26,008 nt of DNA from Aerosakkonema funiforme BLCC-F2 (GTDB lineage: Bacteria; Cyanobacteriota; Cyanobacteriia; Cyanobacteriales; Aerosakkonemataceae): assembly GCF_041929185.1 (NCBI RefSeq), contig NZ_JBHFNO010000043.1; one strand, given 5' to 3'. The translations under genes were made by a program, and so were the position numbers. Of this stretch, positions 9,854 through 25,946 are shown piece after piece (within the stretch, counting starts at the first letter, position 1; every line of letters starts with the position of its first letter). Below the pieces are notes generated by a model. That model was given only the letters and a program-made list of their open reading frames with translations, had not been told where the DNA came from and did no database searches.

Positions 9854-9854
9854 G

Positions 9855-10893: not shown

Positions 10894-11050
10894 CTCCCCG
10901 TCCACGGGGAGGGGTGAAACAGGTGTAGGGGGAGGGGTGAAACAGGTGTAGGGGGAGGGGTGAAACAGGTTCGCGGGGAGGGGTGAAAGAGGTGTAGGGG
11001 GAGGGGTGAAACAGGTTCGCGGGGAGGGGTGAAAGAGAGAGGGGCTTCAG
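10894..11050. repeat. six tandem 23-bp G-rich units (AGGTGTAG/AGGTTCGC + GGGGAGGGGTGAAAC); first unit preserves a CTCCCCG-loop-GGGGAGGGGTGAAAC hairpin resembling the CRISPR repeat 3' half
   Basis: Units end at 10920, 10943, 10966, 10989, 11012 and 11035 (period 23). G-tracts GGGGAGGGG x6 on the + strand. Lies in the convergent gap between the fibrillin-like gene and the last gene of the cas operon. Confidence 0.8.
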
Positions 11051-11113: not shown

Positions 11114-11734
11114 CTAATCAACGCATTTGACGCTTTTGATACTGCCATTTTTTAAGGCTGTTATTTTTACTTTTACGATCTGCCCTTGCTGGAGAGAACT
11201 CGCTTTTTTCGGTTCTTTTTCAGTCAATTTAATCGCGCCTAATATTTGATATGTCACTTTATTACCTGCAATGCCAATAACTTGGGCATCTAAGATTTGA
11301 TCGATCGCAAAATCTTGAGATTGCGTCACTTGTAAAATTTCGGCTTGCCGAGTAGATTCTATGACAGGAGCGGTAATTTCGCCGATCGGTCCCGCTTCTT
11401 TGTAGTAGCGCATTAAGCGAATTGACCACCCTAAAATTTGCAGGATAGCTGTTACATCATTTTGATAAAGTTGCAAATATTTGGTGCAAGTTCTTTCTAT
11501 GCTATCATAATATCCAGATGTTTTTTGGCTATATCCGATTCTATTACCTTGGCGGGAAAGTGTTTGCAGATAACTAAAAAATTTCGTGCCGGCATTTTCG
11601 CGATCGCTATAAGCGCGAAGATATGCCATCACTTTACCCAATTCATTTACATCAGTCTCTTCTTTGACCAATGTTTGAGCAATTCCGTGAGCAATTTGCC
11701 ATTGAATTTCGGTTAAATCGGTGGTAGTAAACAT
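11114..11734 (-). CDS. hypothetical protein, terminal gene of the type III operon (alpha-helical N-terminal half, Lys/Val-rich beta-rich C-terminal tail)
   Basis: 206 aa. Start abuts the stop of the upstream RAMP gene (11735), implying co-transcription. No recognisable motif; N-half resembles small alpha-helical Cas11-type subunits only in composition. Confidence 0.55.
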   Translation of the reverse strand: MFTTTDLTEIQWQIAHGIAQTLVKEETDVNELGKVMAYLRAYSDRENAGTKFFSYLQTLSRQGNRIGYSQKTSGYYDSIERTCTKYLQLYQNDVTAILQILGWSIRLMRYYKEAGPIGEITAPVIESTRQAEILQVTQSQDFAIDQILDAQVIGIAGNKVTYQILGAIKLTEKEPKKASSLQQGQIVKVKITALKNGSIKSVKCVD

Positions 11735-12775
11735 TTAATAAACTCCGTCTATAGGTTCTCTAGTTGTCGGCCATTGCAGAACTTGTTGTAACTCTTTCAA
11801 TTGTTGAGATTGTACTAATTGGGTGGATGCCGATCGCACGGCTTTTTGGATGAATTCCTGGAGGGAATTACCAGTCAGAGAAGGGGGTGAGGTGTTGTAA
11901 TTGCAATAGCGATCGCGCCATTCTTTCTCTTTTTCAATCCGCTGAATTTCTGTTACTTCAACTACCATCGTTCCCATACCAATTGGTTTACCGCCTCCCA
12001 CTTTTAAAGCAATGGGATTTTTACTATCTTGTCCTAACACAATCAACAGCGTTCCCAATTCGGCTAAACTTAAATTCCTAAATCCAATTTGGGTAGTAAA
12101 TATCAATTCTTTTCCCGCTTGTTGAACTGGAATACCTTGTTGTCCTTTGTCAATCGATTTAACAAAATGGTAATAAAACTTGCGTCCAGCTATTCTTCCA
12201 TTTATATAGTAGCCGGCACGTTGTTTTCTGGGTGCATAAAGTGAGGGCATAAATCCCACACTCCACTGTGCATTGTTGAGAATCGCATCAGAAAAGCGAA
12301 TCAAACCTTGCCAATCCATTGCCCCAAAAACTTGACAAGCCGGACAAAGTTTAGTATTATCTTTACATTCCCGATAACCATTCGGAATTTGACTCTGTTC
12401 TGCCTTAGTTTTGCACAAACAACTGCGCGTAATTGCTTCATAAGCAGAACGCACAACGCCTTTAAGGGAACTTCCCGGAACGATCGACTGTCGATCGCGT
12501 CCAACGGCAGTTTTGATTAGGGGGATATTTTTGGCATTTCCCGATAAGTCGCTACCCATTGCGACAACGCCAGAAGCGACAAAAGTAGCGGTTTTCACCG
12601 TTAAGCGCAGAAAGATTGTACCGCTAATGCGATCGCTTTTAAACCGATCTTGTCCAATTGGTTTATCTCGCGGTGGCGGCTGACTGGGTAGAGAAATGAG
12701 TTGATAAGGTTTTGGATTAGCAGTTTCTGGTGCAGGATTAGGTTGAGGGCGTCGAATTGGTCGATTGTTAGTCAT
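11735..12775 (-). CDS. Cas7-group RAMP with zinc finger (Csm5-like subunit of a type III-D complex)
   Basis: 346 aa. RAMP G-rich loop IVPGSSLKGVVRSAYEAI, Zn finger CKDNTKLCPACQVFG, C-terminal glycine loop KVGGGKPIGMG. Pro-rich N-terminal extension. 4-nt overlap with the upstream gene. Confidence 0.7.
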   Translation of the reverse strand: MTNNRPIRRPQPNPAPETANPKPYQLISLPSQPPPRDKPIGQDRFKSDRISGTIFLRLTVKTATFVASGVVAMGSDLSGNAKNIPLIKTAVGRDRQSIVPGSSLKGVVRSAYEAITRSCLCKTKAEQSQIPNGYRECKDNTKLCPACQVFGAMDWQGLIRFSDAILNNAQWSVGFMPSLYAPRKQRAGYYINGRIAGRKFYYHFVKSIDKGQQGIPVQQAGKELIFTTQIGFRNLSLAELGTLLIVLGQDSKNPIALKVGGGKPIGMGTMVVEVTEIQRIEKEKEWRDRYCNYNTSPPSLTGNSLQEFIQKAVRSASTQLVQSQQLKELQQVLQWPTTREPIDGVY

Positions 12776-13287
12776 GGGGATATCTCAACAGTGAGAGCGA
12801 TAAAATGTACCGTGGAAGTTTCGCGATCGATGAAATAACGTTGAGCTATTTTAACTTTGTTTGGATTATTCTTTTCATCCTTAATTATGGGATTGAGAGC
12901 GTCAGGTACAATGAATTTTTGGGGAAACCGAGTTTCATCGGGACGATAAATGTAAGCAGGTCGTTGTTCTACTTTCCACTCTATCTTTTTATCTTGTTCC
13001 TTTTTTTTATCTCGTTCCTCATCAATAGAAGTGAAAGCAGAATCTTTACCAGTTATTGACAGCAATAATACTGAATAACCTTGACCTTGTTGTTTCCAAC
13101 GCAATTCGCGATCGCAATTAAACATTTGTCCTTCTGGACTGGGAAATTCTTTTAATTCCTCTACAATTCCACTGACGCGATCTTGCCACCGAAGAAAGTA
13201 ATAAGTAGGCTTTTTCGCAAATTTATCTAGCAATTTTCTGAGATCTTCAGATGAGTCAACTTGTTTAATACCTACAAAAGGATTCAT
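12772..13287 (-). CDS. hypothetical protein occupying the position of csx19 (all1473 family) in type III-D operons
   Basis: 171 aa. ATGA-type 4-nt overlaps with both flanking RAMP genes (13284 and 12775). Lys/Glu-rich central segment. No motif recognised; assignment is positional only. Confidence 0.5.
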   Translation of the reverse strand: MNPFVGIKQVDSSEDLRKLLDKFAKKPTYYFLRWQDRVSGIVEELKEFPSPEGQMFNCDRELRWKQQGQGYSVLLLSITGKDSAFTSIDEERDKKKEQDKKIEWKVEQRPAYIYRPDETRFPQKFIVPDALNPIIKDEKNNPNKVKIAQRYFIDRETSTVHFIALTVEISP

Positions 13288-14234
13288 GCTGCTGTCCCTT
13301 GCAATATTTCACACCAAGCTTCTACAGTTTGCGAGAACAATTCACGCACTTTATCGCTCCCTTCCCAACTCTGTTGCACGCCAAAATTAAACTCAATTGG
13401 TGTTGTTTTTGGTGATGTTTCTTTCAGATCGTTAGGGGGAAAACCATAGCGGTTTCTTTCTTCATCTTCCAGAAACATTCCCGCACCCAATAAGGAAGTA
13501 AGCGGCCATTTTGTTTCTGTGCCGATCGCGCTAATTTGTTCATCTTTTATAATACAGCCAGGATATTGGACAACGGCTGAATTTAACTTAACTTCCACCA
13601 ATCCCAAACCGCGAGATTTAGCGAAACCTAATCCAAACCAACCTTGATTTAAATCGCGCAATACTAAACCGATTAATCCTAATTGTGCAAGGGTAAAATT
13701 TCTGAGATGAATTTTGGTATGAAATTCTCCGGCGGTACAAACTTGAAAATTAAATGGCCCTACAGCGACCGAACCAAACACTCTGTCAATAGCTACGCCA
13801 TTGCGTTCTTCAATTTTCAACAATTTGGGATTAACCGGATAAGCATCTTCTATTCTGACGCGACTGGCGATCGCAGTATTGCCAAACATTTGATCGGTAA
13901 AAGAAGACAATTTATAGATATCTGACGTTGATTTATTTTGCAGATATTCGTATTTGTCATTGAGTGGATCGTTTGCCCATAAACTATTTGCATTATTGGG
14001 GTCGCGGCGATCGCTTCCCACCGTCCGCACAATGCGTTCCGCATGGGCGCGAATAGCACCTTTGAGAGAACTTCCGGGTAAGTAAATTGTCCGTCCTCCG
14101 CCGTGATAGGTTTCCACAAATTCCATATCCGGTTTCGTAGGGTCAGCACCTTCTTTGCCAGATTTAATTAAGATAGGGCCAGCAGGTGTGATGGTTAATT
14201 TTATTGTACATTGATTGACAAATCGTTTAAACAT
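13284..14234 (-). CDS. csm3: Csm3 (Cas7) RAMP backbone subunit
   Basis: 316 aa. YLPGSSLKGAIRAHAERI (G-rich loop 1), QMFGNTAIASRVRIEDAY, NGVAIDRVFGSVAVGPFNFQVCTAG (thumb), GFAKSRGLGLVEVKL (glycine loop). Confidence 0.8.
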   Translation of the reverse strand: MFKRFVNQCTIKLTITPAGPILIKSGKEGADPTKPDMEFVETYHGGGRTIYLPGSSLKGAIRAHAERIVRTVGSDRRDPNNANSLWANDPLNDKYEYLQNKSTSDIYKLSSFTDQMFGNTAIASRVRIEDAYPVNPKLLKIEERNGVAIDRVFGSVAVGPFNFQVCTAGEFHTKIHLRNFTLAQLGLIGLVLRDLNQGWFGLGFAKSRGLGLVEVKLNSAVVQYPGCIIKDEQISAIGTETKWPLTSLLGAGMFLEDEERNRYGFPPNDLKETSPKTTPIEFNFGVQQSWEGSDKVRELFSQTVEAWCEILQGTAA

Positions 14235-15126
14235 TGCTGTTTTCCTCGGCAGTGGTATTAGCAGACATGAAAGTTCTTAAATGGGTAATCAAAGCATTTG
14301 TCCATTCCTGTTTGAGGAAAGCAATTCTTTCTGGATAACATGAGTAAATATCCATTTTTCCGTTAACCAGATTTTGCAGGTAATTTAGTAATAATTCTGG
14401 ATCGTCTTCTGCATCAAACCATTGCATTTCTTTAATATCCAATTTCACTACACCCAATCCGCGAGAACGTCCGCCGCCTAACGGAATTTGTTCGGTTTCA
14501 AATTGGTGTAACCCGATGGTTAATAAACCTAATTCCCAAGGTTCGGCGTTTTCAACTACTGCTTTAAACTCAAATTGCGTTCCTGCCGGTACAACTTGAA
14601 AATCGTATAATTTCGCATCAGCAGCAGTTTCGGTATCGCGATCGATCGCAACTCCATCTCGTTCTTGATATTGTCCAAACCAACTATCTGGTAATACCGT
14701 TAAATCGCGCACTTGAAATTTACTCGCAATCCAAGGAGAACCGAATAAGTGAGAAGCTAAATCGGTTTCTTTTAAAATTGCAGTGGTGAGGTCAAAATCA
14801 TCTTTGTTTTCGTCCTTAAGTTTCTTGATTTCATCAGCTTTTAGCGACCATTCCTCCTCTACGGCGGGATTGGCGACTAATTTGCGTAGGGCAATGCCCT
14901 TGTTGAAGGCATCGCTTCCCACAATCCCGCGCAGGAAGCTTTCCAAACGCGATCGCAAAGCACCTTTAAAACTCGACCCCGGAATTAAAGGTCGTCCCAC
15001 CGCATCTTTAATTACTGGTAAATCGGAACCGATTGGTTCTGTGGAACGTCCCGCGCCAATTCGCAAAGCGGTGATAGTGGTGAGAGTTCCGCTGATTTCC
15101 AAACGACTTTTGAAAGTATCAAACAT
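14227..15126 (-). CDS. csm3: Csm3 (Cas7) RAMP backbone subunit, second paralog
   Basis: 299 aa. LIPGSSFKGALRSRLE, HLFGSPWIASKFQVRD, DGVAIDRDTETAADAKLYDFQVV, GGGRSRGLGVVKLD. 8-nt overlap with the downstream csm3. Confidence 0.8.
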   Translation of the reverse strand: MFDTFKSRLEISGTLTTITALRIGAGRSTEPIGSDLPVIKDAVGRPLIPGSSFKGALRSRLESFLRGIVGSDAFNKGIALRKLVANPAVEEEWSLKADEIKKLKDENKDDFDLTTAILKETDLASHLFGSPWIASKFQVRDLTVLPDSWFGQYQERDGVAIDRDTETAADAKLYDFQVVPAGTQFEFKAVVENAEPWELGLLTIGLHQFETEQIPLGGGRSRGLGVVKLDIKEMQWFDAEDDPELLLNYLQNLVNGKMDIYSCYPERIAFLKQEWTNALITHLRTFMSANTTAEENSNV

Positions 15127-15140
15127 AGTTTACCTTATTT

Positions 15141-15707
15141 TCAATTTAAACTCAACCAGCTAAACACATCTTGCGCGGATAACTGTAAATCTTCCAGAGA
15201 ACTTAACACGGGTAAATTGTCTTGATTTTCCTTAGTTTCTGGTTGTTGACCTGGACGAAAAACCATGATAATTTTCTCTTCAGGATCGATTAACCAGCCT
15301 AATTCTGTTCCCGCATTTAAACAAAAAAGGATGTTACCAATCACGCGAGTTGAGCTTTGTTCTGGGGAAAGAATTTCAATTACCCAATCTGGATGAATGG
15401 AAAAAGAATTTTCGATTTCGCCGTTAGCATCTAAAGGGATACGTTGCCAAGAAAAAACGCTGATATCTGGCACAATTGAACGACCGCCAAAGGTGCAACG
15501 CAATTCTGTAAAAGCACTAGCTAAACGATTAGGTTCGCCTACCCTATTAATTTCGGTTGAGAAGCGAGTTTGCAATCGGCTATGTTTTCCTTTTGGCATA
15601 GGTTTTTGATAGATTTGTCCGTCTATATATTCACTAGCTGGTTTAGTTTCTGGGAGTTGCAGAAATTCGGCTAATGATATTTTGGTGGAAAGTTTTGTGG
15701 ATGTCAT
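15141..15707 (-). CDS. Uma2-family (DUF820) PD-(D/E)xK endonuclease inserted inside the type III effector operon
   Basis: 188 aa. Hallmark Uma2 motifs LAEFLQLPE...EYIDGQI (N-terminal) and VPDISV...PDWVIEILSPEQS (PD...EIxSP core). 29-nt and 14-nt gaps to the flanking csm2 and csm3 genes on the same strand. Confidence 0.75.
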   Translation of the reverse strand: MTSTKLSTKISLAEFLQLPETKPASEYIDGQIYQKPMPKGKHSRLQTRFSTEINRVGEPNRLASAFTELRCTFGGRSIVPDISVFSWQRIPLDANGEIENSFSIHPDWVIEILSPEQSSTRVIGNILFCLNAGTELGWLIDPEEKIIMVFRPGQQPETKENQDNLPVLSSLEDLQLSAQDVFSWLSLN

Positions 15708-15736
15708 GGTTGAACAATTGATAATTTAAAAACAAA

Positions 15737-16144
15737 TTACTTGGAATTGATGTATTTCAAGTATCGAGCGCCATACCCCAAGTAGCGGCGAATTAATTCT
15801 AACCAAATAGATTTGAAATCAGAACCAGAAATTTCTTTGTGAATAACATTAGCTTTCTGCTTGATTTGAGTATCAATATCATTGACAATTTTTGCTGCTA
15901 ATGAATTGTCACCTCTTCCCCATTTCTTATCGCGCCCGACTTGATAGCGCAAGAAATTTTTAATCACTTCTGGGCTATCGGTTGTATCTGCAACGCGCAC
16001 TAAGTTGCGAAATTGAGTTTCTTGTAAGTCGCCATAGGATTGACGATTGTCTAAAGCTGCTTGAATCCATAACACTAAATCATCTTCAGCAAGACGGATG
16101 TTTTTTTGTACTTTGAGTTCTATCTGTTGTTCTGCTAGGTTCAT
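15737..16144 (-). CDS. csm2: Csm2 (Cas11) small subunit
   Basis: 135 aa, all-alpha composition. LQETQFRNLVRV matches the Csm2 LTTSQ(I/L)RK motif; NFLRYQVGRDKK and RRYLGYGARYLKY match the (V/F)xYQxGRE and C-terminal aromatic/Gly motifs of Csm2 (compared with the S. thermophilus Csm2 sequence recalled from memory). ATGA overlap with the upstream RAMP gene. Confidence 0.6.
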   Translation of the reverse strand: MNLAEQQIELKVQKNIRLAEDDLVLWIQAALDNRQSYGDLQETQFRNLVRVADTTDSPEVIKNFLRYQVGRDKKWGRGDNSLAAKIVNDIDTQIKQKANVIHKEISGSDFKSIWLELIRRYLGYGARYLKYINSK

Positions 16145-17376
16145 ACAGCGTTTTCCCGAAATACTAAATGAAATTCATTGCAAACCTGAACTTGACCGAA
16201 TCCTTCCGAAGTACGTTCCCCAACTCCTTTTAATTCTAAATTCCCTAATGCTCGATACCAAATGTCTGGCGAACTTGTACTAAACAAATACACGGCACCT
16301 TTATTGGTAACTAATTCTACATCTTTCATCAATCCCCATGCGGTATTCCAGCCAGAACGATAATCGTAGCTGGTATATGCAACGTGCAGTTTTAAAGAAG
16401 GGTCATCGATCGCAGCATACTTTTTCAACATTCTATCATTAATTACTGTGGTACGTTGCCAATTTTCAGTAAAAATGGCATCGGATTGTAAATCAATGGT
16501 GAAATAGGTGCGGTCTAATAGCAAATCTTGCTGGGTTTCGCCAAAGATTTCTCCCCACTTTTGCCATCTTTTTTTAAGTTCATCGTTAAACTTGGCGATC
16601 CGAGGTTCTACTGTCGCTGCGGCGTTACCTATGTCTGCGATAATTTCCGCTTTTCCTAATCCCCGCGATGCAGAACCACCCAATCGAAAAGAATGGCGAT
16701 TGATAAAATCAGTTAGGTTATTAGCTAATTCCTCATTGTCTAATAAAATTTTGCTGCGATAGGTAGCAGGTTCCTCTTTTCCTTCCACTTCATTTAATAC
16801 TTCAATGCTGTAAAGCACCTGTTCTTCAGAAGTGGCGCGACGGCGGTTGATACCGACTCGCGTTAGCAGTCGAGTCGTGGTTGAAAGTTGATAGTAATTG
16901 TTACCGACACAAGCATAAAAACCGCTATAAGGTTCTACTCTTCCACAGTCTACCGGACAATTTGGATCGTAAGGATGGTTGTAACCTCCGGCGCAAAAAC
17001 GATCGATCAACGTATCGAAGACACCGTGCTTTTTGGGATCTGTTTTAAAACCGGGATTGGTTTTAGAACTAACTGCTGTGGCGGGGAGTACCTGAATTGG
17101 ATTAGGTAGCAAGGTTGGTTTATCTTGAATTTTGGCGATCGCAGGATAACCATTCTGGAAAATTGCCGCATTTTCGCCTAAGAATAAGCTGTGGAAGTCG
17201 TCACCTGCTTCTGGTGTGGGGGATTCAGATTCGCGGAGGATTCCAGATGCGATCGCACCCCTGATTACCGATGCGGGTATATAGCTTTCGGCTTCACTGA
17301 CGGAACCACCAGGCTTTTGTCGTCCAATGGCTAACGGTGAAGCTGCTGTAATTGTTAGTTGAATTTCGTAAGTCAT
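16141..17376 (-). CDS. Cas5-group RAMP (Csx10/Csm4-like large RAMP subunit)
   Basis: 411 aa. N-terminal LTITAASPLAIG...YIPASVIRGAIASGIL (Cas5/Csm4-type start) and C-terminal glycine loop GGSASRGLGKAEI. The size fits Csx10 of type III-D. Confidence 0.65.
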   Translation of the reverse strand: MTYEIQLTITAASPLAIGRQKPGGSVSEAESYIPASVIRGAIASGILRESESPTPEAGDDFHSLFLGENAAIFQNGYPAIAKIQDKPTLLPNPIQVLPATAVSSKTNPGFKTDPKKHGVFDTLIDRFCAGGYNHPYDPNCPVDCGRVEPYSGFYACVGNNYYQLSTTTRLLTRVGINRRRATSEEQVLYSIEVLNEVEGKEEPATYRSKILLDNEELANNLTDFINRHSFRLGGSASRGLGKAEIIADIGNAAATVEPRIAKFNDELKKRWQKWGEIFGETQQDLLLDRTYFTIDLQSDAIFTENWQRTTVINDRMLKKYAAIDDPSLKLHVAYTSYDYRSGWNTAWGLMKDVELVTNKGAVYLFSTSSPDIWYRALGNLELKGVGERTSEGFGQVQVCNEFHLVFRENAV

Positions 17377-17378
17377 TC

Positions 17379-17411
17379 GATTTTGGATTTTAGATTTTGG
17401 ATTTTGGATTG
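17379..17411. repeat. STRR-like heptamer tandem repeat (GATTTTG x4) in the 51-bp gap between two cas genes
   Basis: gattttggattttagattttggattttggatt read directly. Confidence 0.6.
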
Positions 17412-17427
17412 TCTATGTCGGATATTT

Positions 17428-18141
17428 TTAAGTTTTTAAAGCATTCCAAACGTTATCATCAATTTTTAGGTCTGGAAATTTCCAATGCAACCAACCTAAA
17501 CCACCTGATTTACTACCACCTAAAGCATGGATGTGATGTAATGCTGCGAATAAAAGCGGTTTAGTATAGGCGGGACAATCCGGTAAAAAATGAATGTGAC
17601 TGGAAAATTCGAGTTGGATATTTGCGGGAGATGTTTCTAAGAGAAATAGCTTTTGGTCTTCGGAAGTACGACGGCGGCGATTGATGGTAACGCCGGGACG
17701 CAATACTTCTGGGAGATTTTCTGCTTTTTCGTTGCAAATGAGGTCATCAAATAGCAGGCGCGAAGGTAAGGCGGGATTGCCAAATATTTGACAAATCAGA
17801 CAGTGATAACGTTCATCTCCTTCTACTTGATAATCTGGACGATGAAATTTTATTTCTTCGTTTTCTGGAAATTTTGCGCGTTGGGGACACATGGTTTGGG
17901 GGTTGGGAGATTCGCAGATTTTCCAATGCAAACCTCTGGCTATTTTTTCGCATTCGTGACGCAGGCGACCTTTGAATTGAGAAGCGGGAATTAGTAATTT
18001 TCCGGTTGCTGTGCGAACAATTGGTTTATCTGCTAGTGTTCCCGATGTACCGCCTGCGCCAACGCACAAAGCACTGTCTATTACCGCAGTTATGGATAGA
18101 GATTCTGTTGAATTTTGCCTTAAGTTTTGGAGTTGGATCAT
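17428..18141 (-). CDS. Cas7-group RAMP with zinc finger (Csm3-like, first backbone subunit after cas10)
   Basis: 237 aa. LLIPASQFKGRLRHECEKI, Cys cluster CESPNPQTMCPQ...HCLICQIFG, glycine loop GGSKSGGLGWLHW. Confidence 0.7.
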   Translation of the reverse strand: MIQLQNLRQNSTESLSITAVIDSALCVGAGGTSGTLADKPIVRTATGKLLIPASQFKGRLRHECEKIARGLHWKICESPNPQTMCPQRAKFPENEEIKFHRPDYQVEGDERYHCLICQIFGNPALPSRLLFDDLICNEKAENLPEVLRPGVTINRRRRTSEDQKLFLLETSPANIQLEFSSHIHFLPDCPAYTKPLLFAALHHIHALGGSKSGGLGWLHWKFPDLKIDDNVWNALKT

Positions 18142-18245
18142 CAGTTTCCTCCCGTTGATATTGTATCTTGAATGCTTGCAATATCCATCGGTTAAGAATA
18201 TTTAGACCTTGGAAGGGCGAAGCATTCGGACAGAAAACTTAGGGT

Positions 18246-20774
18246 TTAAGTAGATAAATTGTCGCCCGAATGCTTCGCCCCTACATTTAACCTATCTGTA
18301 TCTTGAATTTTGGCGTCAAGGGTTTGCGAAACTTCGATAAAAGGATAAAGGTCTACTAACTCGCGCCAAATAGTTTCGTAAGTGGACTTTTTTAATAAGT
18401 TTAAAATCACACTTTGTAACTGAACTTGACTGGTTGGTAAAAGTTTTAAGGAAAACATTAGAACTACTTTCCTGAAGATTCCAGCCTTCTCAAAAAGCCA
18501 AGGGGCTAAGTAACCATCATTTGTTGCTGCTTGACACCAAGCATCCTCAAAATTTTCTTTTAGTAACTGTTGTTCTTTTGAACCCAAACGCACGCGGAAA
18601 TAACGATAGTTGAGGATGGCGGTGTTTTTGCCTCGTTCCAGTAAACTGCGAATTTGATAGAGTTGCGATCGCGGAAATCCCGACTGTTTTATTGCTTTGG
18701 CTGTTTCCAGCAGTCCGCCTAGTTCATGCAGCGTGTAAGGTGCAGCATGAAGTTTGAGTTTTTGGTTATCTTTGATCGATTTGGTTAAACCTTCTCGGCG
18801 GAACGAACTGATATTTGATGATATCATTGTAACTGATTTCATCACCAAAAAGTCAACCGTACCGCCATAATAATGATAGTGTTTTTTCAACTCTTTAGCA
18901 CGCGCTTTCGCAGATTTGAGTAACTGTTCCGTTAATTTTTGAGCGTAATAAATCGGCGTGGTGTAGGCGGTAATCAAAACACCGATCGACATACTCAATT
19001 GACATTCGGAGGGGTTCTGTGGCGGCGGTTGGTAACGATGACAGGCGATTGATTTCGCATCATCTCGCTGGGATGCGGGAATTTCATATCTTTTTCCTAA
19101 ATCAGTTAATCGCTTCTCGAATTCTTCACCGATCGTTTGCGCGATCGCCAATGCTTTATCTGCTGGTACAATCAGCAATACATCGTCACCGCCAATAGTT
19201 AAAATTTCAAAGGGATGAATGACAACACCATTTCGATGTTGATGTTCTTTTCCAGTTAAGCCACTTAACCGATGGGGCTTTAGATGCGTGAGAGCTTCAT
19301 AAACTGAATTTTCCGTTGCATCGAAAATATCTTCACTAAACTGAGCGTAATCCGCTGGAGTTTTAATCTTTTGGATGTAGCCACCCATATTGTTACCATC
19401 TGCATAAATGTAAGCAACAAATCCATTGCTAGCATTGCCGATTTCTGTGAGCGATCGCGCTTGCTGAATTCCGCTATTGCTAAAACCTGCGTAATATTTG
19501 CGCCAACGTTCTAACTTGAGTAAAAACCGCTCAAACTTATTGACCCAACTTTCTACTTCTCCGGGTTGCCATTCAAGTTTTGTGCGTTCGTACCATTCTC
19601 GTTCTTGTTCTTCCTTCGAGATTTGACCTATTATTCGCTTACGCGCTAACGCTTCCGAAAACCAAGGTTCGTTGGGAAGCTCAGTCGCATGAAAAATAGC
19701 AGAACGGCAATCCCCTTCATCCCTTTTCAAGTAAGGATGAGTATCAAAAATCGGCGGGTAGCAACGGCTGGGACGTTCTGAACCAGGTAAATCGTTACCG
19801 CTGCGTCGGTGATTAAATTGTGCGGCTAATTTACCTGCTAATTCGTTAAAACTTTTGCGATTATTAAATAATTCTCCCCAATTTTCTTCTCCTTCTAAGC
19901 TACCGAAGTAAGCTTTTACTAAATCATTGTTGCGATTTTTTTCGTGATTGTTGCGATTTTTTTCGTACCAATCTAGCCAGAGTGTTTGTTCAATTGGATC
20001 GCGCAGCAACCCAAAACGCACTTCTAGTAATTTGAAGCTATCCCCAACAGCACAAGAGTTAGCCGTTAAAGTTTGTTCGGTATAACGCCGTTCAATCGCA
20101 TTCGCTAAATCGTCGATGTAAGCAGCAGGACAAAATGCGAGGATATTACCACCCGTTGAATAGATTATCAGTTCTGGGATGAGAGCATCTGAAAGCTTGA
20201 GATTATCTGCATCACCGGGAAAGCAGTTATCTAACCACTGTTTTACTTCTTCGCAGTGTGCTGTGTAACGGGGAGACTCTGGCGGTTTTCCGAAAAAAGC
20301 GGGTAAGTCGATCAGATTGATTCGATCGAGTAGTGCAGAAGCACCCCGGATGTCTTGCAGCTTAGCCGCTTCAAAAACGTAACCTTTAATTTTGGTAGCA
20401 CCGCCATAAACTAAGCCGATGGGAGTATTCCACGCTTGAGGATTTTCCCGTTGCAAGGCTTCAAAGGTTTGACGTAGTTTTTCAGCGGTGTCTGGAAACT
20501 TCAGGTTATCGATTTTTTGCGCTTGTTCTAGAAATGGTTGAATTGCAGCTGGAATACTTTTTCCTTCTTTGAGAGTCTGTTTAATTGTCTGCAACTCGGA
20601 TAGGTCGAACAGAGGTGTGGGTCGATCGCCCCAGGCGAGACACCAAGCGATTCCTATCGAAAGCTTCGTTGATATTGTCATCATACCATTTTGCAAAGTT
20701 TTCACTCTAAAGGACTTTTTTCCAAATCTGGGTAATGCCAACATTCCCAAACTCTTTGCTGTATTTTGACACAC
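18246..20774 (-). CDS. cas10: Cas10 (Csm1/Cmr2-type large subunit) with intact GGDD cyclase palm motif and no recognisable N-terminal HD nuclease motif
   Basis: 842 aa as listed. The start at 20774 is GTG; alternative ATG starts lie at residues 11 and 31. Palm motifs AYIYADGNNMGG and ILTIGGDDVLLIVPAD, Cys cluster, GASALLDRI. The first 150 residues contain no H-D dyad in HD-domain context. Confidence 0.85.
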   Translation of the reverse strand: MCQNTAKSLGMLALPRFGKKSFRVKTLQNGMMTISTKLSIGIAWCLAWGDRPTPLFDLSELQTIKQTLKEGKSIPAAIQPFLEQAQKIDNLKFPDTAEKLRQTFEALQRENPQAWNTPIGLVYGGATKIKGYVFEAAKLQDIRGASALLDRINLIDLPAFFGKPPESPRYTAHCEEVKQWLDNCFPGDADNLKLSDALIPELIIYSTGGNILAFCPAAYIDDLANAIERRYTEQTLTANSCAVGDSFKLLEVRFGLLRDPIEQTLWLDWYEKNRNNHEKNRNNDLVKAYFGSLEGEENWGELFNNRKSFNELAGKLAAQFNHRRSGNDLPGSERPSRCYPPIFDTHPYLKRDEGDCRSAIFHATELPNEPWFSEALARKRIIGQISKEEQEREWYERTKLEWQPGEVESWVNKFERFLLKLERWRKYYAGFSNSGIQQARSLTEIGNASNGFVAYIYADGNNMGGYIQKIKTPADYAQFSEDIFDATENSVYEALTHLKPHRLSGLTGKEHQHRNGVVIHPFEILTIGGDDVLLIVPADKALAIAQTIGEEFEKRLTDLGKRYEIPASQRDDAKSIACHRYQPPPQNPSECQLSMSIGVLITAYTTPIYYAQKLTEQLLKSAKARAKELKKHYHYYGGTVDFLVMKSVTMISSNISSFRREGLTKSIKDNQKLKLHAAPYTLHELGGLLETAKAIKQSGFPRSQLYQIRSLLERGKNTAILNYRYFRVRLGSKEQQLLKENFEDAWCQAATNDGYLAPWLFEKAGIFRKVVLMFSLKLLPTSQVQLQSVILNLLKKSTYETIWRELVDLYPFIEVSQTLDAKIQDTDRLNVGAKHSGDNLST

Positions 20775-21032
20775 CTATGGAAGACCCCCGTTCCAATTAA
20801 GCAACTAGACTGGTTGCCAAGTGCGGATCTTACACCTGCTTATAAAGCCCGCCAGCAATTCAAATCGCTGGCTAATAGTAAAAGTCGTCTTTAGACGACT
20901 GGTTAAAGAATACCAGTCTACTTTAGTAGACTTGAGCTATCAGCCTGGGGTTTGAACCCCAGGCGGGCTATTGGTAACGGTGAGTACACCCGGATTAAAG
21001 ACCAGATGTATCAGCACATCATCTTTAGCTTT
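20775..21032 (-). promoter_or_regulatory. cas10 upstream leader with three consecutive stem-loops and a thrice-repeated GACTGGT(T/A) motif
   Basis: Hairpins AGTCGTC-TTTA-GACGACT (20883-20900), AGTCTAC-TTTA-GTAGACT (20915-20932) and CCTGGGGT-TTGA-ACCCCAGG (20944-20963). AGACTGGTT at 20807, CGACTGGTT at 20896 and its reverse complement ACCAGTCT at 20912. Confidence 0.3.
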
Positions 21033-21452
21033 CTATTCAAGTTTGATAGAGAGTTTTAACGCCAACCCCAAACGCTGGCATAACAAAGAAAGGCGGACAC
21101 TTAGGCAAAAATTCTTTGTCAGAGCTTGAATCGCTGCTAAAGCAATAGATTGAGCCGTTGAATTATTAAGTTTAGCAGGCTCGGTTTCAATTTTGGAGGA
21201 ATCCTGGTTGATGGGGAGATATCCTTGCTGGTAAGCGGGCTTTTCGGCTAGTGGCATCTGCAAAATGCTTACTTGTGTGGGTGTAGTAACCCGTGTAGCC
21301 TGCTCCGTAAACAGTATGTTTGTAAGATTGAATGGCTGTACAACCTTGTGTAACGCTGGGTTGTAGAAAGTTTGACAGTTGCCCAACTGCAAATAACTCA
21401 AGCAGTTAGACTTTTCAACTACGGTAGTTCCGTAGAAATCTGCTGTTTTCAT
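21033..21452 (-). CDS. hypothetical ORF upstream of cas10 (low confidence, may be non-coding leader)
   Basis: 139 aa. Low-complexity Leu/Ser/Gln-rich product with no motif. Same strand as cas10, separated from it by 258 bp of hairpin-rich DNA. Confidence 0.25.
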   Translation of the reverse strand: MKTADFYGTTVVEKSNCLSYLQLGNCQTFYNPALHKVVQPFNLTNILFTEQATRVTTPTQVSILQMPLAEKPAYQQGYLPINQDSSKIETEPAKLNNSTAQSIALAAIQALTKNFCLSVRLSLLCQRLGLALKLSIKLE

Positions 21453-21495
21453 GTACTTGTCCTTGATTTGTAAATTCGCTTGTCTCAGATGCTAC

Positions 21496-21586
21496 TAGAC
21501 ATCTCCAGAAATTAAAGGTGCGTTAGCTGGAACCCTTGTAGAGACGTTTCATGAAACGTCTCTATAATGTTTTTTGGAGATGTCTA
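21496..21586 (+). terminator. nested palindrome: 12-bp outer inverted repeats (TAGACATCTCCA / TGGAGATGTCTA) enclosing a 12-13 bp perfect hairpin (TAGAGACGTTTC-AT-GAAACGTCTCTA) followed by T6
   Basis: Inner hairpin 21538-21565, T-run 21570-21575: an intrinsic-terminator shape on the + strand. Sits between the 139-aa ORF and the CRISPR leader. Confidence 0.4.
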
Positions 21587-21691
21587 CTGAATGTTGAGTC
21601 AGTTAAATCTTTAGTTGGTGGTGGCCACGCTGGAATTTTCATATGTTTCTCTACAAACTAATGTCTACAATTATAGTATTGAAACTAAGTA

Positions 21692-21725
21692 TTGACTTTT
21701 AGAGAAAATAAGAGTATCTTATATA
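21692..21725 (+). promoter_or_regulatory. candidate sigma70-type promoter in the AT-rich leader of the mini-array (TTGACT-N17-TATCTT)
   Basis: ttgact 21692-21697, 17-nt spacer, tatctt 21715-21720, followed by tatatat. Lies about 15 nt upstream of the first repeat. Confidence 0.25.
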
Positions 21726-21737
21726 TGTATAGTTAAA

Positions 21738-21929
21738 CAAAAACCTAAAAACTCCCCGTAAGGGGATTGAAACTCGCTCTTTCAGTGCTGACACACTTGT
21801 CGAGTCAGTGTTCAATACTTCCCCGCAAGGGGACTAAAACCTCAAAACTATTGCACAGTGCTTATTGCTAAGTAAACCAGCGATCGGCTACTACCCCTTG
21901 CTGGAAAAGGGGCAGTAGCTTATGAAAGC
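21738..21929 (+). CRISPR. decayed CRISPR mini-array: two recognisable repeats with one 31-nt spacer (period 67) plus a third strongly degenerate repeat-like hairpin
   Basis: R1 ...AACTCCCCGTAAGGGGATTGAAAC ends at 21773. R2 ...ACTTCCCCGCAAGGGGACTAAAAC ends at 21840. R3-like CTACCCCTTGCTGGAAAAGGGGCAGTAGCTTATGAAAGC ends at 21929. Conserved CCCCG-NN-GGGG hairpin plus (A/C)TTGAAAC 3' handle, as in cyanobacterial type III-associated repeats (recalled). An isolated ATTGAAAC also occurs at 21678. Confidence 0.6.
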
Positions 21930-21974
21930 TTTGTTCTGGTGTGTCGGCTTATTCCCCAAATGGGGACGGAAAGA

Positions 21975-22571
21975 TTACGAACTCGCCATCGCACCTTGCT
22001 GCAACTCTCTCACCACCCATTCCAATTCCTCGACCATCCAACTGCTACTCAACTGGCGGTAAATCTGCAATTGTTCTTGATAAAGCCATAACACCCCTTC
22101 CTTACCGCCTCGGAAATAATGCCAAATTTCTTCGCCAAATTGCCTAAAATTAACCAACATAGTCCGCGCATTGTGCAACTTATCCGCCAGCATCACGCGC
22201 TGGACTGGCGGACAAGCATCGCGTAACTGTTGGAGATATTGCTGTTTGTGTTCCCTCCAAGTCGGATATAAACTCGGTTCTGGCTCGGTGCAACCTTCTA
22301 TAATATGGAAAACGCGATCGCCAAATCGCTGCAAAATTTCCGCCTTCGTTACTTCTCCCCCTCGGTCTTCCAGCGCATCGTGCAATAAAGCAGAAATTGC
22401 CTCATCTTCATCTCCTCCATCTTCCAACACCAAAGCCGCGACGCTCAACAAATGGGCAATATAAGGAGTACCTGTAATTTTCCGTTGTTGGTCGCCATGA
22501 AGTTGCGCCGCATATACCAACGCTTCCTGAAAACGCGAAGTTAAAATTGTCAAACACCGTTCATTCTTCAT
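21975..22571 (-). CDS. small alarmone hydrolase (SAH; Mesh1/SpoT-like HD-domain (p)ppGpp/(p)ppApp pyrophosphohydrolase family)
   Basis: 198 aa. GTPYIAHLLSVA...AISALLHDALED...ILQRFGDRV...MLADKLHN align motif-by-motif with human Mesh1 (GTPYINHPIGVA...AALLHDTVEDT...HFGAQV...KLADKLYN; sequence recalled from memory). ATG lies 11 nt inside the 3' end of the upstream WYL gene (overlap in a different frame). Confidence 0.8.
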   Translation of the reverse strand: MKNERCLTILTSRFQEALVYAAQLHGDQQRKITGTPYIAHLLSVAALVLEDGGDEDEAISALLHDALEDRGGEVTKAEILQRFGDRVFHIIEGCTEPEPSLYPTWREHKQQYLQQLRDACPPVQRVMLADKLHNARTMLVNFRQFGEEIWHYFRGGKEGVLWLYQEQLQIYRQLSSSWMVEELEWVVRELQQGAMASS

Positions 22572-23976
22572 AATTTTTCCATTCTCGTTCGATTTCTTTC
22601 CTCGCCTGTTCTCGTAATTCCACAGGGAGGAGAATTTCTACATTCGGTCGCCACGCACGCAAGCGCTGCATTACATTAGGATCGCCTTGGCGATATTGCG
22701 CTTGGTAATAAGCATCTTGGGGAGAACGTTTGCGCCAAATATTTAACATCTTTTGTTGTTGTTCTCCCTTTAAGTTCTGCCGAATTAATCGTTCTACTTC
22801 TTGATATGCCACTCGCGCAAAGGTAGCATGGCGCATAGTATTGCGGATGTAGCGATTATCCCACTCGCGATCGAACCTCAATAGTAGCAGTTGTGCGGGT
22901 TGATAGTAATCAAAACCCCAAACTTCTGCGATCGCTAATTGGATATCATCGGGAATAGGCAGAGTATTCTTTTGATATCGCTGTTTCAGCGCCACTGGAA
23001 CTTGCGAATCTTCCCAACTCAAAGGGATCGAATCCTGAATGCGATCGAGTCGATAATTGCGAAAATCTAATTTTCCCGATTCGTCTTGCGGAACTTCGCC
23101 AAACGCACACAGATACGGCCCTCTCTGATAATAATAAATGCAAACCGGATAAACTACCACCGACAAAGTTGTTTGCCAAACCGCACTTTCATAACTTAAC
23201 AAAATCGGCGGTACAACTTCCTTTTGCCAAAGTTCCCGCAGTTGTGCTTGCCATTCCTCCACGCGATCGATCGAGTCTTGGGGAATCACATATTCCAGAT
23301 GGATAAAAAAGCGCTGCTGACCATTCAATCGCGTCGAAAGATTATCTGCGATCGCAGCCAAATCCGGTTGCGTGAGAAAATCCAAATTGTAAGCTATCAG
23401 ACGAGAATCTGATTTTTGGATCGAACTCGGCGTCCGTGGATATTTCTTAACCCGATAATACCGATTTCCTTGGCGTTTCAGCCACCCGATTTCTATCAAA
23501 ACTTGCAAATCGCCATAAAGCGATCGTCTTGTCAAGCCAAACAAACGAGTATCGTGCAACAATTCTTTAAGGTTATCCGGTAACAAATGATGTTCCCGCA
23601 AAGATTGTTCAAACGATCGCTCTTTTTCCTGCACTTCCGGCTTCCCTAATTCCCCTTTCCACTTTGACTGAGTTAAATTGAAATTAGAGCCAAATAACCA
23701 AGCCGCAACAGTTTTGGCACAACGGCATTTCGGGTCGTGCAACGCCGGAATTTCTTCTTCTCTAGTATGAGTCGCAGTAAAAAAAGCATCTCGCCATTCA
23801 GGATAAGTAAAATTTTCCGGCAAATTCAACTTAATGCCGGCTTCCCCATACAGAAAGTGCAGCCACACCCACAACCGCACCGCCTGTAGCAATCTTTGTT
23901 TTAAATCTCCCCGCGCCAGCCATTGCAGTAGTTCCACGCGAGGAGGTTCATTCCAAAAGGGGCCGATCGTTTCCAA
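22561..23976 (-). CDS. WYL-domain transcriptional regulator (wHTH + WYL + C-terminal extension), CRISPR-associated type
   Basis: 471 aa. wHTH-like LLHDTRLFGLTRRSLYGDLQVLIEIGWLKRQGNRYYRV. WYL-domain signature VVVYPVCIYYYQRGPYLCAFGE...FRNYRLDRIQ (YL...RLDRI). Translationally coupled to the SAH gene. Confidence 0.7.
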   Translation of the reverse strand: METIGPFWNEPPRVELLQWLARGDLKQRLLQAVRLWVWLHFLYGEAGIKLNLPENFTYPEWRDAFFTATHTREEEIPALHDPKCRCAKTVAAWLFGSNFNLTQSKWKGELGKPEVQEKERSFEQSLREHHLLPDNLKELLHDTRLFGLTRRSLYGDLQVLIEIGWLKRQGNRYYRVKKYPRTPSSIQKSDSRLIAYNLDFLTQPDLAAIADNLSTRLNGQQRFFIHLEYVIPQDSIDRVEEWQAQLRELWQKEVVPPILLSYESAVWQTTLSVVVYPVCIYYYQRGPYLCAFGEVPQDESGKLDFRNYRLDRIQDSIPLSWEDSQVPVALKQRYQKNTLPIPDDIQLAIAEVWGFDYYQPAQLLLLRFDREWDNRYIRNTMRHATFARVAYQEVERLIRQNLKGEQQQKMLNIWRKRSPQDAYYQAQYRQGDPNVMQRLRAWRPNVEILLPVELREQARKEIEREWKNYEE

Positions 23977-24089: not shown

Positions 24090-24446
24090 ATGTCAGCCAT
24101 TCAATTACAACTGTTTCGGGAGCAAACCCAGTCAGGTCTGACCTACCAACACCTGCACATCCAAATCAATACACCGGATGGACTGATTGCACCAGCCGAC
24201 CTGAAAAATTTATCCCTACCGGAGGAAATGGTCTGGAGTCAAGGCGTTGTCATTGAAGGTAAAGCGCCAATTTGGTTGTACGCCTATTTAGTTCACGCTT
24301 GTCACCCCGCCGCTTGGGTAGCTTGCTTCGACCCCCGCTTAGAAGGTGCAGTTATAATTGCTACACACAGTCGCCAAGTCGCACTCGGAGATATTCTCAA
24401 ACTCAACTTACCCGCAGCCATATTTCGCAAAACAACAGGTACGTAG
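24090..24446 (+). CDS. csx3: Csx3/Crn3-like cyclic-oligoadenylate ring nuclease (stand-alone, catalytic His/Asp/His pattern present)
   Basis: 118 aa, the size of stand-alone Csx3. GKAPIWLYAYLVHACHPAAWVACFDPRLEGAVIIATHSRQVALGD has H-(+9)-D-(+12)-H spacing similar to the His60/Asp69/His80 Mn site of A. fulgidus Csx3 (numbers recalled, not checked). Adjacent to type III genes; has a paralog at 25014. Confidence 0.5.
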   Translation: MSAIQLQLFREQTQSGLTYQHLHIQINTPDGLIAPADLKNLSLPEEMVWSQGVVIEGKAPIWLYAYLVHACHPAAWVACFDPRLEGAVIIATHSRQVALGDILKLNLPAAIFRKTTGT

Positions 24447-24465: not shown

Positions 24466-24978
24466 ATCGTAGGGTGGGTTAGGCACGGGCAATAATTTCA
24501 ATACTTTCGATCGATAATTAAGTTCCCGTGCCGTAACCCACCATCCCACCTACCTGTAACATTGACAAACATTTTCCACCATAAACCCTCTAGACCCGAA
24601 GATTGTACCCTATCAACCCAAAAGAACCAAGCGTTAAAACGCAACAACATACGAAGGTCTGTAAATCTAGCTCTTTCAAGTTTATGCTTCGCTTTTGTAA
24701 CAGACAATTGTGATGGTGGGTTACGGCACGGACAGTTAATTATTAGTTTTTTGAGAGAAATTATCGCCCGTGCCTAACCCACCCTACAGGTTACAAAAAG
24801 CTATCAACCCAAAAGAACCAAGCGTTAAAACGCAACAACATACGAAGGTCTGTAAATCTAGCTCTTTCAAGTTTTTGGTTCGCTTTTGTAACAGAAAATT
24901 GTGATGGTGGGTTACGGCACGGACAGTTAATTATTAGTTTTTTGAGAGAAATTATCGCCCGTGCCTAACCCACCCTAC
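24466..24978. mobile_element. second cluster of the same MITE-like hairpin family: one forward copy, then a 191-bp unit duplicated in tandem, each ending in an inverted copy
   Basis: Forward end ATCGTAGGGTGGGTTAGGCACGGGCAATAAT at 24466-24542. Reverse ends ...ATTATCGCCCGTGCCTAACCCACCCTAC at 24715-24786 and 24906-24977. CTATCAACCC... unit starts at 24610 and 24801. Internal segment (TAGCTCTTTC...GTAACAG...TGTGATGGTGGGTT) is homologous to the left cluster at 10060-10135. Confidence 0.5.
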
Positions 24979-25013: not shown

Positions 25014-25946
25014 ATGAATACGATCGCCTTACAAAAACAAGTTGAACTGCAAGTCACCGAACTGAAAACCGCACAAGGAAGTTATCAAACTTTGGCGATT
25101 AGCTTAGTGATGTTCCAGGAACTAATAAAAACTGATGTACTCGCACAATTGAAACTTCCTGACGAACTAGACTTGAGCAGAGAAGTAATTTTATACGGTA
25201 TAGCTCCTACTTGGTTGTATGCCAATTTAGTAGAACGCTGTTGGCAAGCGCCTTGGATAGGATGCTATACAGCGCCAAAAAATCAAATTGTTGTAATTCA
25301 AAGTCGGATATCAACAATAAGTATAGGCGATGCGATACCTGTATTGCTTAACAACATTCCTTGTCCGGCAATTTTAATAGGTGGTTCGCCTGACAGCGGC
25401 AAAAGCGTTTTATCGAATGCTTTGCGTTTTAATTTGATGAAAACCGGAGCATTCAAACGAGTATTTGTACATCGCGCTTCTTGGGATGGTGAGGGAAATT
25501 GGGTTTACGAAGTAGCGAATCGGGATTTAGCTAAAAAGCTGATTGTAGAAAACGAGTTTCGATTGCACGAAAATCCCGAAACGGCGAAGTTAATACCGAA
25601 ATTCTTTAAATATCATAGCTCGGCGGTACAGAATTTGCGGGAAGTTGTCGATTTGGTTTTGGTTGATGTGGGTGGTAAACCGCAGCAAGAGAAAGCGCCT
25701 CTGGTCGCACAATGTACGCACTATATAATTATTAGTAAAGAATCAGATGAGATTCCCAAATGGCACGAGCTTTGTCATCCAACTTTGCAGCCGTTAACGG
25801 TGATTCACAGCGTCCGACAAAAACGAGAAGAAGTTTGGCAAAAACAACCTTTTTTGGAAATCATCGACGGACGCTGGTGCGAAGGTGAAATCCAGTCTGT
25901 TCCCGATATCTTGCTGGAAAATGTGCTTAGGGTTTTGCACGCCTAG
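25014..25946 (+). CDS. Csx3-like N-terminal domain (catalytic His residues substituted) fused to a P-loop NTPase domain
   Basis: 310 aa. N-terminal YGIAPTWLYANLVERCWQAPWIGCYTAPKNQIVVIQSRISTISIGD is clearly paralogous to the 24090 gene, but its His positions are E/W/R. Walker A GGSPDSGKSVLSNAL and Walker B-like LVLVDVGG. Confidence 0.5.
   Translation: MNTIALQKQVELQVTELKTAQGSYQTLAISLVMFQELIKTDVLAQLKLPDELDLSREVILYGIAPTWLYANLVERCWQAPWIGCYTAPKNQIVVIQSRISTISIGDAIPVLLNNIPCPAILIGGSPDSGKSVLSNALRFNLMKTGAFKRVFVHRASWDGEGNWVYEVANRDLAKKLIVENEFRLHENPETAKLIPKFFKYHSSAVQNLREVVDLVLVDVGGKPQQEKAPLVAQCTHYIIISKESDEIPKWHELCHPTLQPLTVIHSVRQKREEVWQKQPFLEIIDGRWCEGEIQSVPDILLENVLRVLHA

Follow-up and report, generated by a model that had tools for sequence, protein, structure and literature searches.

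A two-repeat CRISPR unit beside a cyanobacterial type III-D operon as a candidate crRNA-like RNA gene with a split leader site

Why would a cyanobacterium keep a CRISPR array of two repeats and a single spacer beside an intact type III effector operon? The question is raised by a stretch of 26,008 nucleotides from Aerosakkonema funiforme BLCC-F2, the whole of which is called the window in the following. An earlier note on this DNA regarded the array as decaying and named a reliance on arrays elsewhere, or a shift to a signalling or regulatory role, as possible reasons. We analyzed the window together with 80 related III-D loci from a scan of one genome per species (numbered with the prefix L), whose hits did not include the Aerosakkonema genome itself. 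On balance we lean towards the reading that the unit is a self-contained crRNA-like RNA gene of a conserved III-D family, which would regulate the leader of a neighbouring gene at the RNA level via the III-D effector, and that this link is most likely weakened or lost in the window.

Setting and anatomy of the mini-array

According to NCBIfam, Pfam and PADLOC the minus strand of the window carries a complete type III-D effector operon of approximately 9.7 kb, in agreement with the earlier note, which had described it as kept and put it at about 9.6 kb. The same three profile libraries found no Cas6, Cas1 or Cas2 among the window ORFs, as had been noted for the processing and adaptation genes, and no type I genes in the window. 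The effector encoded by this operon is the presumed user of the mini-array guide. Its Cas10 retains the GGDD cyclase motif, which is invariant in our Cas10 alignment (A1). An NCBI protein of A. funiforme matches this Cas10 with 100% identity, and in the closest relative, Planktothrix sp. FACHB-1355, the identity of Cas10 is 87%. The two features of the minus strand to which we refer throughout are:

11114..20774, minus strand: III-D operon with cas10, csx7, csx10, csm2/cas11, a Uma2 insert, csx7, a RAMP gene, csx19, a TIGR03986 RAMP gene and csx21
21033..21452, minus strand: ORF139 (139 aa), a small, fast-evolving gene upstream of cas10, the 5' UTR of which carries the guide site

ORF139 has no family match in Pfam, NCBIfam or PADLOC, and only one other, distant representative was found among 1.84 billion proteins. 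In a three-way alignment its homologues precede cas10 in L018 and L089 as well; the L018 homologue is 27% identical over 141 aa (tblastn, E 4e-5). The gap of approximately 260 nt between ORF139 and cas10 (20790-21030) contains several strong hairpins, e.g. CCTGGGGTTCAAACCCCAGG, which may be terminators or processing sites that decide on co-transcription. No Rfam family matches the mini-array unit, the sole match in the window being a sub-threshold Acido-Lenti-1 hit at 20935-20963.

On its right the mini-array is flanked by genes for a RelA/SpoT-hydrolase-like HD_4 protein (21975-22571) and an HTH-WYL protein (TIGR03985, 22561-23976), and further by a pair of Csx3 ring-nuclease genes at 24090-24446 and 25014-25946, one of them coding for a 310-aa fusion. 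The operon of L002 is accompanied by the same HD_4, HTH-WYL and two-Csx3 set. The gene of the Uma2 family (PF05685, putative restriction endonuclease) lies within the III-D operon both in the window (15141-15707) and in L002 (16042-16611); that the position is similar although the Cas10 proteins of the two loci share only 65% identity suggests a retained accessory rather than a random insertion. We further report tandem repeats at 9854-10052 (a perfect 89-nt unit, 2.2 copies), at 24610-24978 between the two csx3 genes (191 nt, 1.9 copies) and at 10906-11037 directly 3' of csx21 (23-nt unit GGGGAGGGGTGAAACAGGTGTAG, 5.6 copies), the last of these in the place that is taken by one type of mini-array unit (type A, see below) in other loci.

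The mini-array itself is read on the plus strand and has the following parts:

21692..21720, plus strand: predicted promoter-like site, -35 TTGACT, 17-nt spacer, -10 TATCTT (9/12 matches in a consensus scan)
21737..21773, plus strand: R1, a pseudo-repeat with a degenerate 5' half and an intact Cas6-type hairpin UCCCC-GUAA-GGGGA at 21753-21766
21766-21773, plus strand: intact 8-nt tag of R1, ATTGAAAC
21774..21807, plus strand: guide ("spacer") TCGCTCTTTCAGTGCTGACACACTTGTCGAGTCA, 34 nt, homologous to the guides of L018, L089 and L082 (A2 alignment, leave-out model)
21808..21840, plus strand: R2, with the canonical start GTGTTCAAT, hairpin UCCCC-GCAA-GGGGA at 21820-21833 and the variant tag ACTAAAAC
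21886..21920, both strands: terminator-like hairpin with a 13-bp stem and a 7-nt loop
21949..21973, plus strand: repeat relic TTATTCCCCAAATGGGGACGGAAAG, 133 nt after R2, with the hairpin of a different tag variant

The two copies of the motif CCCCG(T/C)AAGGGGA(T/C)T(G/A)AAAC at 21754-21773 and 21821-21840 are 67 nt apart from start to start; the R1 copy ends in CCCCGTAAGGGGATTGAAAC at 21773 and the R2 copy in CCCCGCAAGGGGACTAAAAC at 21840. If up to three mismatches are allowed, the window contains two matches compared to 0.01 expected, and two were reached in none of 100 shuffles, which rules against the possibility that the two copies are coincidental. The 5-bp hairpin UCCCC/GGGGA folds in both repeats in the form expected of a Cas6 substrate. 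With this hairpin and the 8-nt 5' tag ATTGAAAC the unit shares a feature of canonical arrays, the cleavage itself being predicted. The tag differs by strain (ATTGAAAC or ATGGAAAC), and the repeat of the arrays has the form GTTTCAATACTT...CCCCGCAAGGGGA.

The similarity between R1 and R2 is confined to the 3' 21 nt (86%). Their 5' halves differ from each other, in keeping with the earlier statement that the 5' halves are not conserved. Between genera the 5' half of R2 is conserved. R2 still begins like a canonical repeat, with GTGTTCAAT, a sequence complementary to the tag; we accordingly place R2 at 21808-21840 and count 34 nt instead of 31 nt for the spacer. The description as a one-spacer mini-array was borne out, with spacer boundaries revised to 21774-21807. 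A spacer search returned no credible phage or plasmid protospacer for the guide.

The proposed third repeat (about 21886-21920) had to be given up. The hairpin does not align with R1 or R2 and forms a 13-bp terminator-like stem, and it was rejected as a degenerate repeat on account of both alignment and stem length; its position 72 nt after R2 makes an origin from a repeat remotely conceivable. It folds with -23.7 kcal/mol on the plus strand (z -3.7) and -25.3 kcal/mol on the minus strand (z -4.3), and its place between the mini-array and the HD gene, which converge on it, makes a terminator the best reading. The only further match to the repeat pattern in the window is the relic at 21949-21973, which lies outside the region covered by the earlier note and folds weakly (z -1.1). 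Relic repeats after R2 are present in L082, too.

Related units and their complementary leader sites

At least 15 related III-D loci from several cyanobacterial genera carry a two-repeat, single-guide unit. It consists of a hairpin with 8-nt tag, a 34-nt guide and the 5' half of a repeat followed by a hairpin, and it has its own predicted promoter and terminator. These isolated units have a period of 64-70 nt and a "spacer" that is conserved between genera. Many of the III-D operons are bordered by ordinary arrays, which have hairpin and tag in common with the units and periods of 72-78 nt. A covariance model separates the two groups, with 75-111 bits for the units compared to at most 56.6 bits for ordinary repeat-spacer-repeat units. 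If the model is built without the window, the window unit still scores 81.4 bits compared to at most 56.9 bits for units of ordinary arrays. The units of L068 and L089 were discovered independently of the seed set.

Two layouts occur. In type A the unit shares the strand of the operon and is located at its 3' end (L011, L024, L025, L026, L027, L050, L052, L060, L068, L076 and L078); in type B it lies upstream of cas10 in divergent orientation, as in the window (L005, L018, L082 and L089, the last of these from a metagenome scan). A -35 element TTGACT is comparably placed upstream of the units in L024/L025/L026, L050/L076/L078 and L060, and type-A units likewise have sequences of a hairpin plus T-run downstream, as read by eye. 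The contigs of L011 and L026 are labelled Actinomycetota and Acetobacteraceae MAG, yet carry typical cyanobacterial III-D operons and HIP1 sites (GCGATCGC); they are probably mis-binned.

In the alignment of the family the hairpin and tag of R1 and the 5' half and hairpin of R2 are conserved, whereas variation is seen in the 5' half of R1 and in the tag of R2. The hairpin columns of R2 are invariant across 14 loci, and hairpin plus tag of R1 are conserved in all members. The conserved parts are exactly those needed for one crRNA, and the varying parts are dispensable for a gene with a single guide. The guide of type A is approximately 85-90% conserved from Nostoc to Microcoleus and that of the window has homologues in L018, L089 and L082, at variance with the variable, foreign-derived spacers of canonical arrays; the several near-identical full-length repeats at a regular period that mark such arrays are absent from the window unit as well. 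What is found instead is the picture of a regulatory mini-array, i.e. a stand-alone two-repeat unit beside a cas locus that is conserved in related loci. With spacer, R2 5' half and both hairpins conserved across genera and the leave-out score of 81.4 bits, the view of an eroding unit could not be upheld.

We also observed a second type of conserved unit, with three repeats of which the middle one is degenerate, a span of 140 nt and two conserved inserts, directly after the last gene of the operon (L029 21658-21817, L048 9107-9266, L063 18474-18634; also L067 and L080). For these "type C" units no significant target was found in L029, L048 and L063; L029 and L048 have a weak complementary site in common, approximately 1460 nt upstream.

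A comparison of the guides of the two-repeat units with their own loci leads, in 10 out of 12 loci, to the adjacent gene, whose mRNA-sense 5' leader contains the strongest complement of the entire locus. The complementary site of type A is on the same strand 830-1540 nt upstream, sometimes duplicated 33 nt apart, and that of type B on the opposite strand about 280-320 nt away; in both layouts alike the strand of the site is the mRNA-sense strand of the adjacent gene. By gapped local alignment the leader site is the top match of the whole locus in L005, L018, L082, L025, L050, L027 and L068 (0 out of 150 shuffles each), and in L060 it reaches 0.007 against shuffled guides. In L089 the place and strand of the site were predicted beforehand, and its score is 40 compared to a null maximum of 34. 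Without gaps, L005 and L027 have 25 and 26 complementary positions out of 34 (0 out of 400 shuffles). The guide of each lineage fits its own site best (25 compared to at most 17, 26 to at most 19, 23 to at most 20).

The pairing is biased along the guide: 82% of positions 13-34 pair, compared to 45% of positions 1-12 on the side of the tag. Every significant site is on the mRNA-sense strand, antisense to the guide. The 3' flank of the target pairs with tag positions -2, -3 and -4 in 6, 8 and 9 out of 9 sites, at a mean background of tag-flank pairing of 2.15 out of 8, and in L005 a variant tag is mirrored by a variant flank. Sites in mRNA sense, pairing of flank and tag, and weak pairing next to the tag are, at the level of sequence, the marks of self-tolerant type III targeting.

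Some points must be kept in mind here. A duplex-energy scan of the loci with the guide was uninformative, with equally low values for shuffled guides, and was replaced by complementarity with shuffle controls. Palindromy, in the form of a shared TGAnTCA motif, was considered as the cause of the complementarity and rejected, because non-palindromic inner bases pair too (up to 19 contiguous in L050) and the matches are on one strand only. Guide and target may descend from a duplication, as the homology runs a few nucleotides into the repeat parts, and gene conversion among such neighbouring copies could then give the impression of co-variation. The lineages are also not entirely independent of each other, since the leaders have an ancestral motif, ACTGA(C/A)TCAAC, in common. 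Several guide-target alignments require 1-nt indels, which type III effectors are not known to tolerate; the real pairing may for this reason be limited to about 20 nt.

The genes behind the leaders of type A are toxin-antitoxin genes. One kind of neighbour is a Gp49/HigB-like toxin (PF05973 Gp49, 72-77 bits) with an HTH partner, another kind a YoeB toxin (PF06769, 80 bits) with Phd/YefM, all above the Pfam thresholds. The toxin domains begin at about residue 55-65 of the maximal ORFs. The sites are located 20-95 nt upstream of the toxin ATG in L024 and L050, and about 240-300 nt upstream in L027. In the type-B loci L018 and L089 the adjacent gene is a homologue of ORF139, and in L089 the site ends approximately 20 nt before the Shine-Dalgarno sequence and ATG of this gene. 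As cleavage of a toxin-antitoxin leader would lower both partners, an addiction mechanism does not follow by itself. L052 (21062-21616) has kept the unit and an antitoxin-like ORF, without toxin and without complementary site.

A side observation concerns the leaders with sites, which open with short ORFs that contain a PP(P) motif followed by residues similar to LT(D/E)S. Examples are MKIPAWPPPTKDLTDSTF in the window (21562-21642, minus strand), MKIFLKPPPDLPETN in L005 (from 8794), ...GKSPPILPSSLTESIFQ in L024 (from 20709) and an ORF in L050 (from 20854). The short ORF may be translated into a stalling-prone leader peptide overlapping the guide site.

The leader site in the window and the rival explanations

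A three-way alignment shows that the leader of ORF139 in the window is homologous to those of L018 and L089, and that the corresponding site is present in two separated parts:

21587..21603, minus strand: 5' half of the leader site, mRNA sense ACTGACTCAACATTCAG, with homologous sites in L018 and L089
21496..21586: MITE-like insertion of 91 nt with terminal inverted repeats TAGACATCTCCA and a perfect central palindrome GAGACGTTTCATGAAACGTCTC, which splits the site
21476..21495, minus strand: 3' half of the leader site, mRNA sense GTAGCATCTGAGACAAGCGA, behind which come ATTT, AAGGA and the ORF139 start codon ATG

The insertion is absent from the leaders of L018 and L089. Elements with the same ends TAGACATCTCCA and a different interior, each of approximately 225 nt, were observed at 6104-6328 and 9733-9946 in L046 (Sphaerospermopsis). 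The only pairing in register that is left in the window is that of ACTGACTCAACA at 21587-21603 with the 3' end of the guide (11/12), and the ATTT behind the 3' half pairs with tag positions -2 to -4. Neither the ungapped complementarity of the window guide (20/34, p about 0.7) nor the gapped score is significant (24 for the intact sequence, p 0.8; 26 without the MITE, p about 0.4). If the MITE is removed in silico, the guide aligns to the leader over its full length with several indels, and the top match of the window falls exactly on the homologous site. A further candidate in the WYL mRNA (about 22978-23011; 13 Watson-Crick pairs and one G-U pair within the first 15 nt of the guide) was within chance expectation.

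Indels have altered the leader site and a 91-nt MITE divides it, so that in the window the link has probably been broken; with an intact unit and a degraded target the regulatory connection is most likely weakened or lost here. The unit of the window may thus be an orphan, and L052 would be a second example of a similar orphan state. Decay, as suspected in the earlier note, is found after all, not in the unit but in the cognate leader site of its guide.

A first rival explanation is that the locus is the plain remnant of a larger CRISPR array which erodes neutrally and without function, while the effector makes use of arrays and cas6 elsewhere. For filamentous cyanobacteria it is indeed documented that the III-D Cas6 acts in trans on fragmented and orphan arrays (Reimann et al., bioRxiv 10.1101/2020.04.14.041012), and the relic at 21949-21973 together with the relic repeats of L082, the degenerate 5' half of R1 and the lack of a significant target within the window would all fit such a history. 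A neutral remnant is at odds, however, with a spacer and an R2 5' half that are conserved between genera, unlike immune spacers, with promoter-like and terminator-like signals belonging to the unit itself, with a complementary site kept in the leader of the neighbour by homologous units in 10 out of 12 loci, and with a degeneration limited to dispensable parts. We therefore hold this explanation to be unlikely. It is also conceivable that the spacer was derived from the cell itself, e.g. acquired by an RT-Cas1 from an abundant transcript of the neighbour, and then mutated to escape autoimmunity, the unit being a hitch-hiker or a decoy for Cas6 or the effector. Guide and site do look like diverged copies with gapped alignments of nearly full length, the indels shift the part next to the tag out of register, and the window and L052 have retained the unit although it has no target there. 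Retention over several genera and beside different cargo genes with the 3' pairing maintained, compensatory changes including the tag/flank pair of L005, and the conserved position of the promoter make this explanation improbable.

The third rival leaves the regulatory role in place and assigns it to another machinery, namely a co-resident type I Cascade (e.g. I-D) that would act on DNA instead of the III-D effector. Types I-D and III-D co-occur in many cyanobacteria (bioRxiv 10.1101/2020.04.14.041012), the regulation of toxin-antitoxin cargo by mini-arrays has been described in I-D and further type I systems (Shmakov et al. 2023, PMC10120712), and the targets lie near the start of transcription units, where DNA binding would repress too. 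Against this, the complementarity is weakest at the first 12 guide positions, exactly where the PAM-adjacent seed of type I must pair; all significant sites are antisense to the guide in the mRNA; the pairing of flank and tag is a type III feature; the units are located inside or at the ends of III-D operons and have hairpin and tag in common with the arrays that flank these operons; and the window has no type I genes. A Cascade-based regulation appears very unlikely to us. We thus return to the reading of an RNA-level regulator that works through the III-D effector: the regulatory role, named as one alternative in the earlier note, is favoured by the comparative evidence of conserved units and leader complementarity in relatives, as far as sequences can tell.

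A possible mechanism and its relation to known systems

The pairing of the guide with the leader of a neighbour suggests, on the basis of sequence comparison, self-regulation instead of immunity. The order of parts in such a gene would be a predicted promoter, a minimal upstream repeat (hairpin and ATTGAAAC tag), the guide, R2 with the 3' Cas6 hairpin, and a predicted terminator. A Cas6 encoded elsewhere would cut the transcript of the unit, and the processed RNA would be loaded into the III-D effector, which would bind and probably cleave the leader mRNA and thereby lower the expression of the neighbouring gene. In type III-A and III-B systems Cas10 is kept from being activated by pairing at tag positions -2 to -4 and by mismatches adjoining the tag, while RNA binding and cleavage persist. 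The weak pairing adjacent to the tag and the pairing of the flank with positions -2 to -4 could likewise keep Cas10 signalling off here, and the unpaired segment near the tag would often be produced by 1-nt indels. Such a safeguard would matter because the Cas10 of the window keeps its GGDD cyclase motif.

The III-D unit would in this case be the RNA-level counterpart of CreTA, CrePA or CreR. We put forward, as a tentative proposal, that III-D systems carry conserved crRNA-like genes which aim the effector at the leader mRNA of toxins or of the gene before cas10 and silence it without Cas10 signalling, that this would be the first such counterpart at the RNA level, and that the window represents a state broken by a MITE. 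The regulatory mini-CRISPRs known so far serve effectors that bind DNA, of types I, II and V; if the proposal is true, type III complexes gain a housekeeping, post-transcriptional role. It would also provide a natural case of a type III guide that silences RNA without cyclic-oligoadenylate signalling, which is useful for the design of type III knock-down tools, and it would suggest a coupling of toxin-antitoxin cargo at III-D loci to an intact effector, by way of addiction or as a defence against anti-CRISPRs (anti-anti-CRISPR). For the genome of A. funiforme it would explain why a seemingly useless two-repeat array is kept beside an intact effector operon.

The literature searched, with subscription journals outside the coverage, yielded no description of a type III equivalent of CreTA, CrePA or CreR, nor is type III mentioned in a 2026 preprint on crRNA-like RNAs. 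Compared to a canonical cyanobacterial III-D array, the unit has the hairpin (CCCCGCAAGGGG), the family of 8-nt tags, the orientation logic and presumably the Cas6 in common. It differs in having one guide that is conserved between genera, a 34-nt spacer, a period of 67 nt compared to 72-78 nt, degenerate outer repeat halves and no phage match.

Mini-arrays were reported in 10-16% of type III loci in the one systematic survey, by Shmakov et al. 2023 (PMC10120712), who found for type III neither a conserved position nor an enriched Cas10 clade nor targets, and mini-array-regulated toxin-antitoxin cargo in I-D. The units described here resemble these mini-arrays in their two repeats, one of which is partly degenerate, in a spacer partly complementary to sequence beside a variable cargo, often a toxin-antitoxin pair, in or near the cas locus, and in that some loci keep the mini-array without cargo (L052 and, functionally, the window). 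Unlike them they flank III-D operons, have their sites in transcribed leaders, and show a pairing biased to the 3' part of the guide.

In CreTA and CrePA (types I-B, I-F and V-A) the crRNA-like antitoxin RNA CreA represses a toxin. The units of the type-A relatives are similar to these systems, as a degenerate mini-CRISPR lies beside a toxin gene and partial complementarity would allow repression without an immune response. CreTA and CrePA are predicted to tie the fitness of the cell to an intact effector, and the same is predicted for the III-D units. CreA, however, guides a DNA-binding effector to the toxin promoter by means of PAM and seed, whereas the III-D units would employ a presumed RNA-targeting effector on sites in 5' UTRs; a match to promoter DNA with a PAM-proximal seed is not found in them. 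In addition, the toxins beside the III-D units are ordinary type II toxins with protein antitoxins of their own, and the neighbour in the window, ORF139, is an uncharacterised protein.

The Cas-regulating RNA CreR is described for types I-B, I-E and V-A (bioRxiv 10.1101/2023.03.10.532045), and no type III example is described in the literature searched. As in the window, a mini-CRISPR lies beside the cas operon; the guide of CreR matches the start of the cas transcription unit, and of the known systems CreR comes closest to the layout of the window, where the unit is divergent from the ORF139-cas10 strand. The difference is one of level: CreR represses transcription via promoter DNA, whereas in loci of the window type the site belongs to the 5' UTR of the small gene that precedes cas10.
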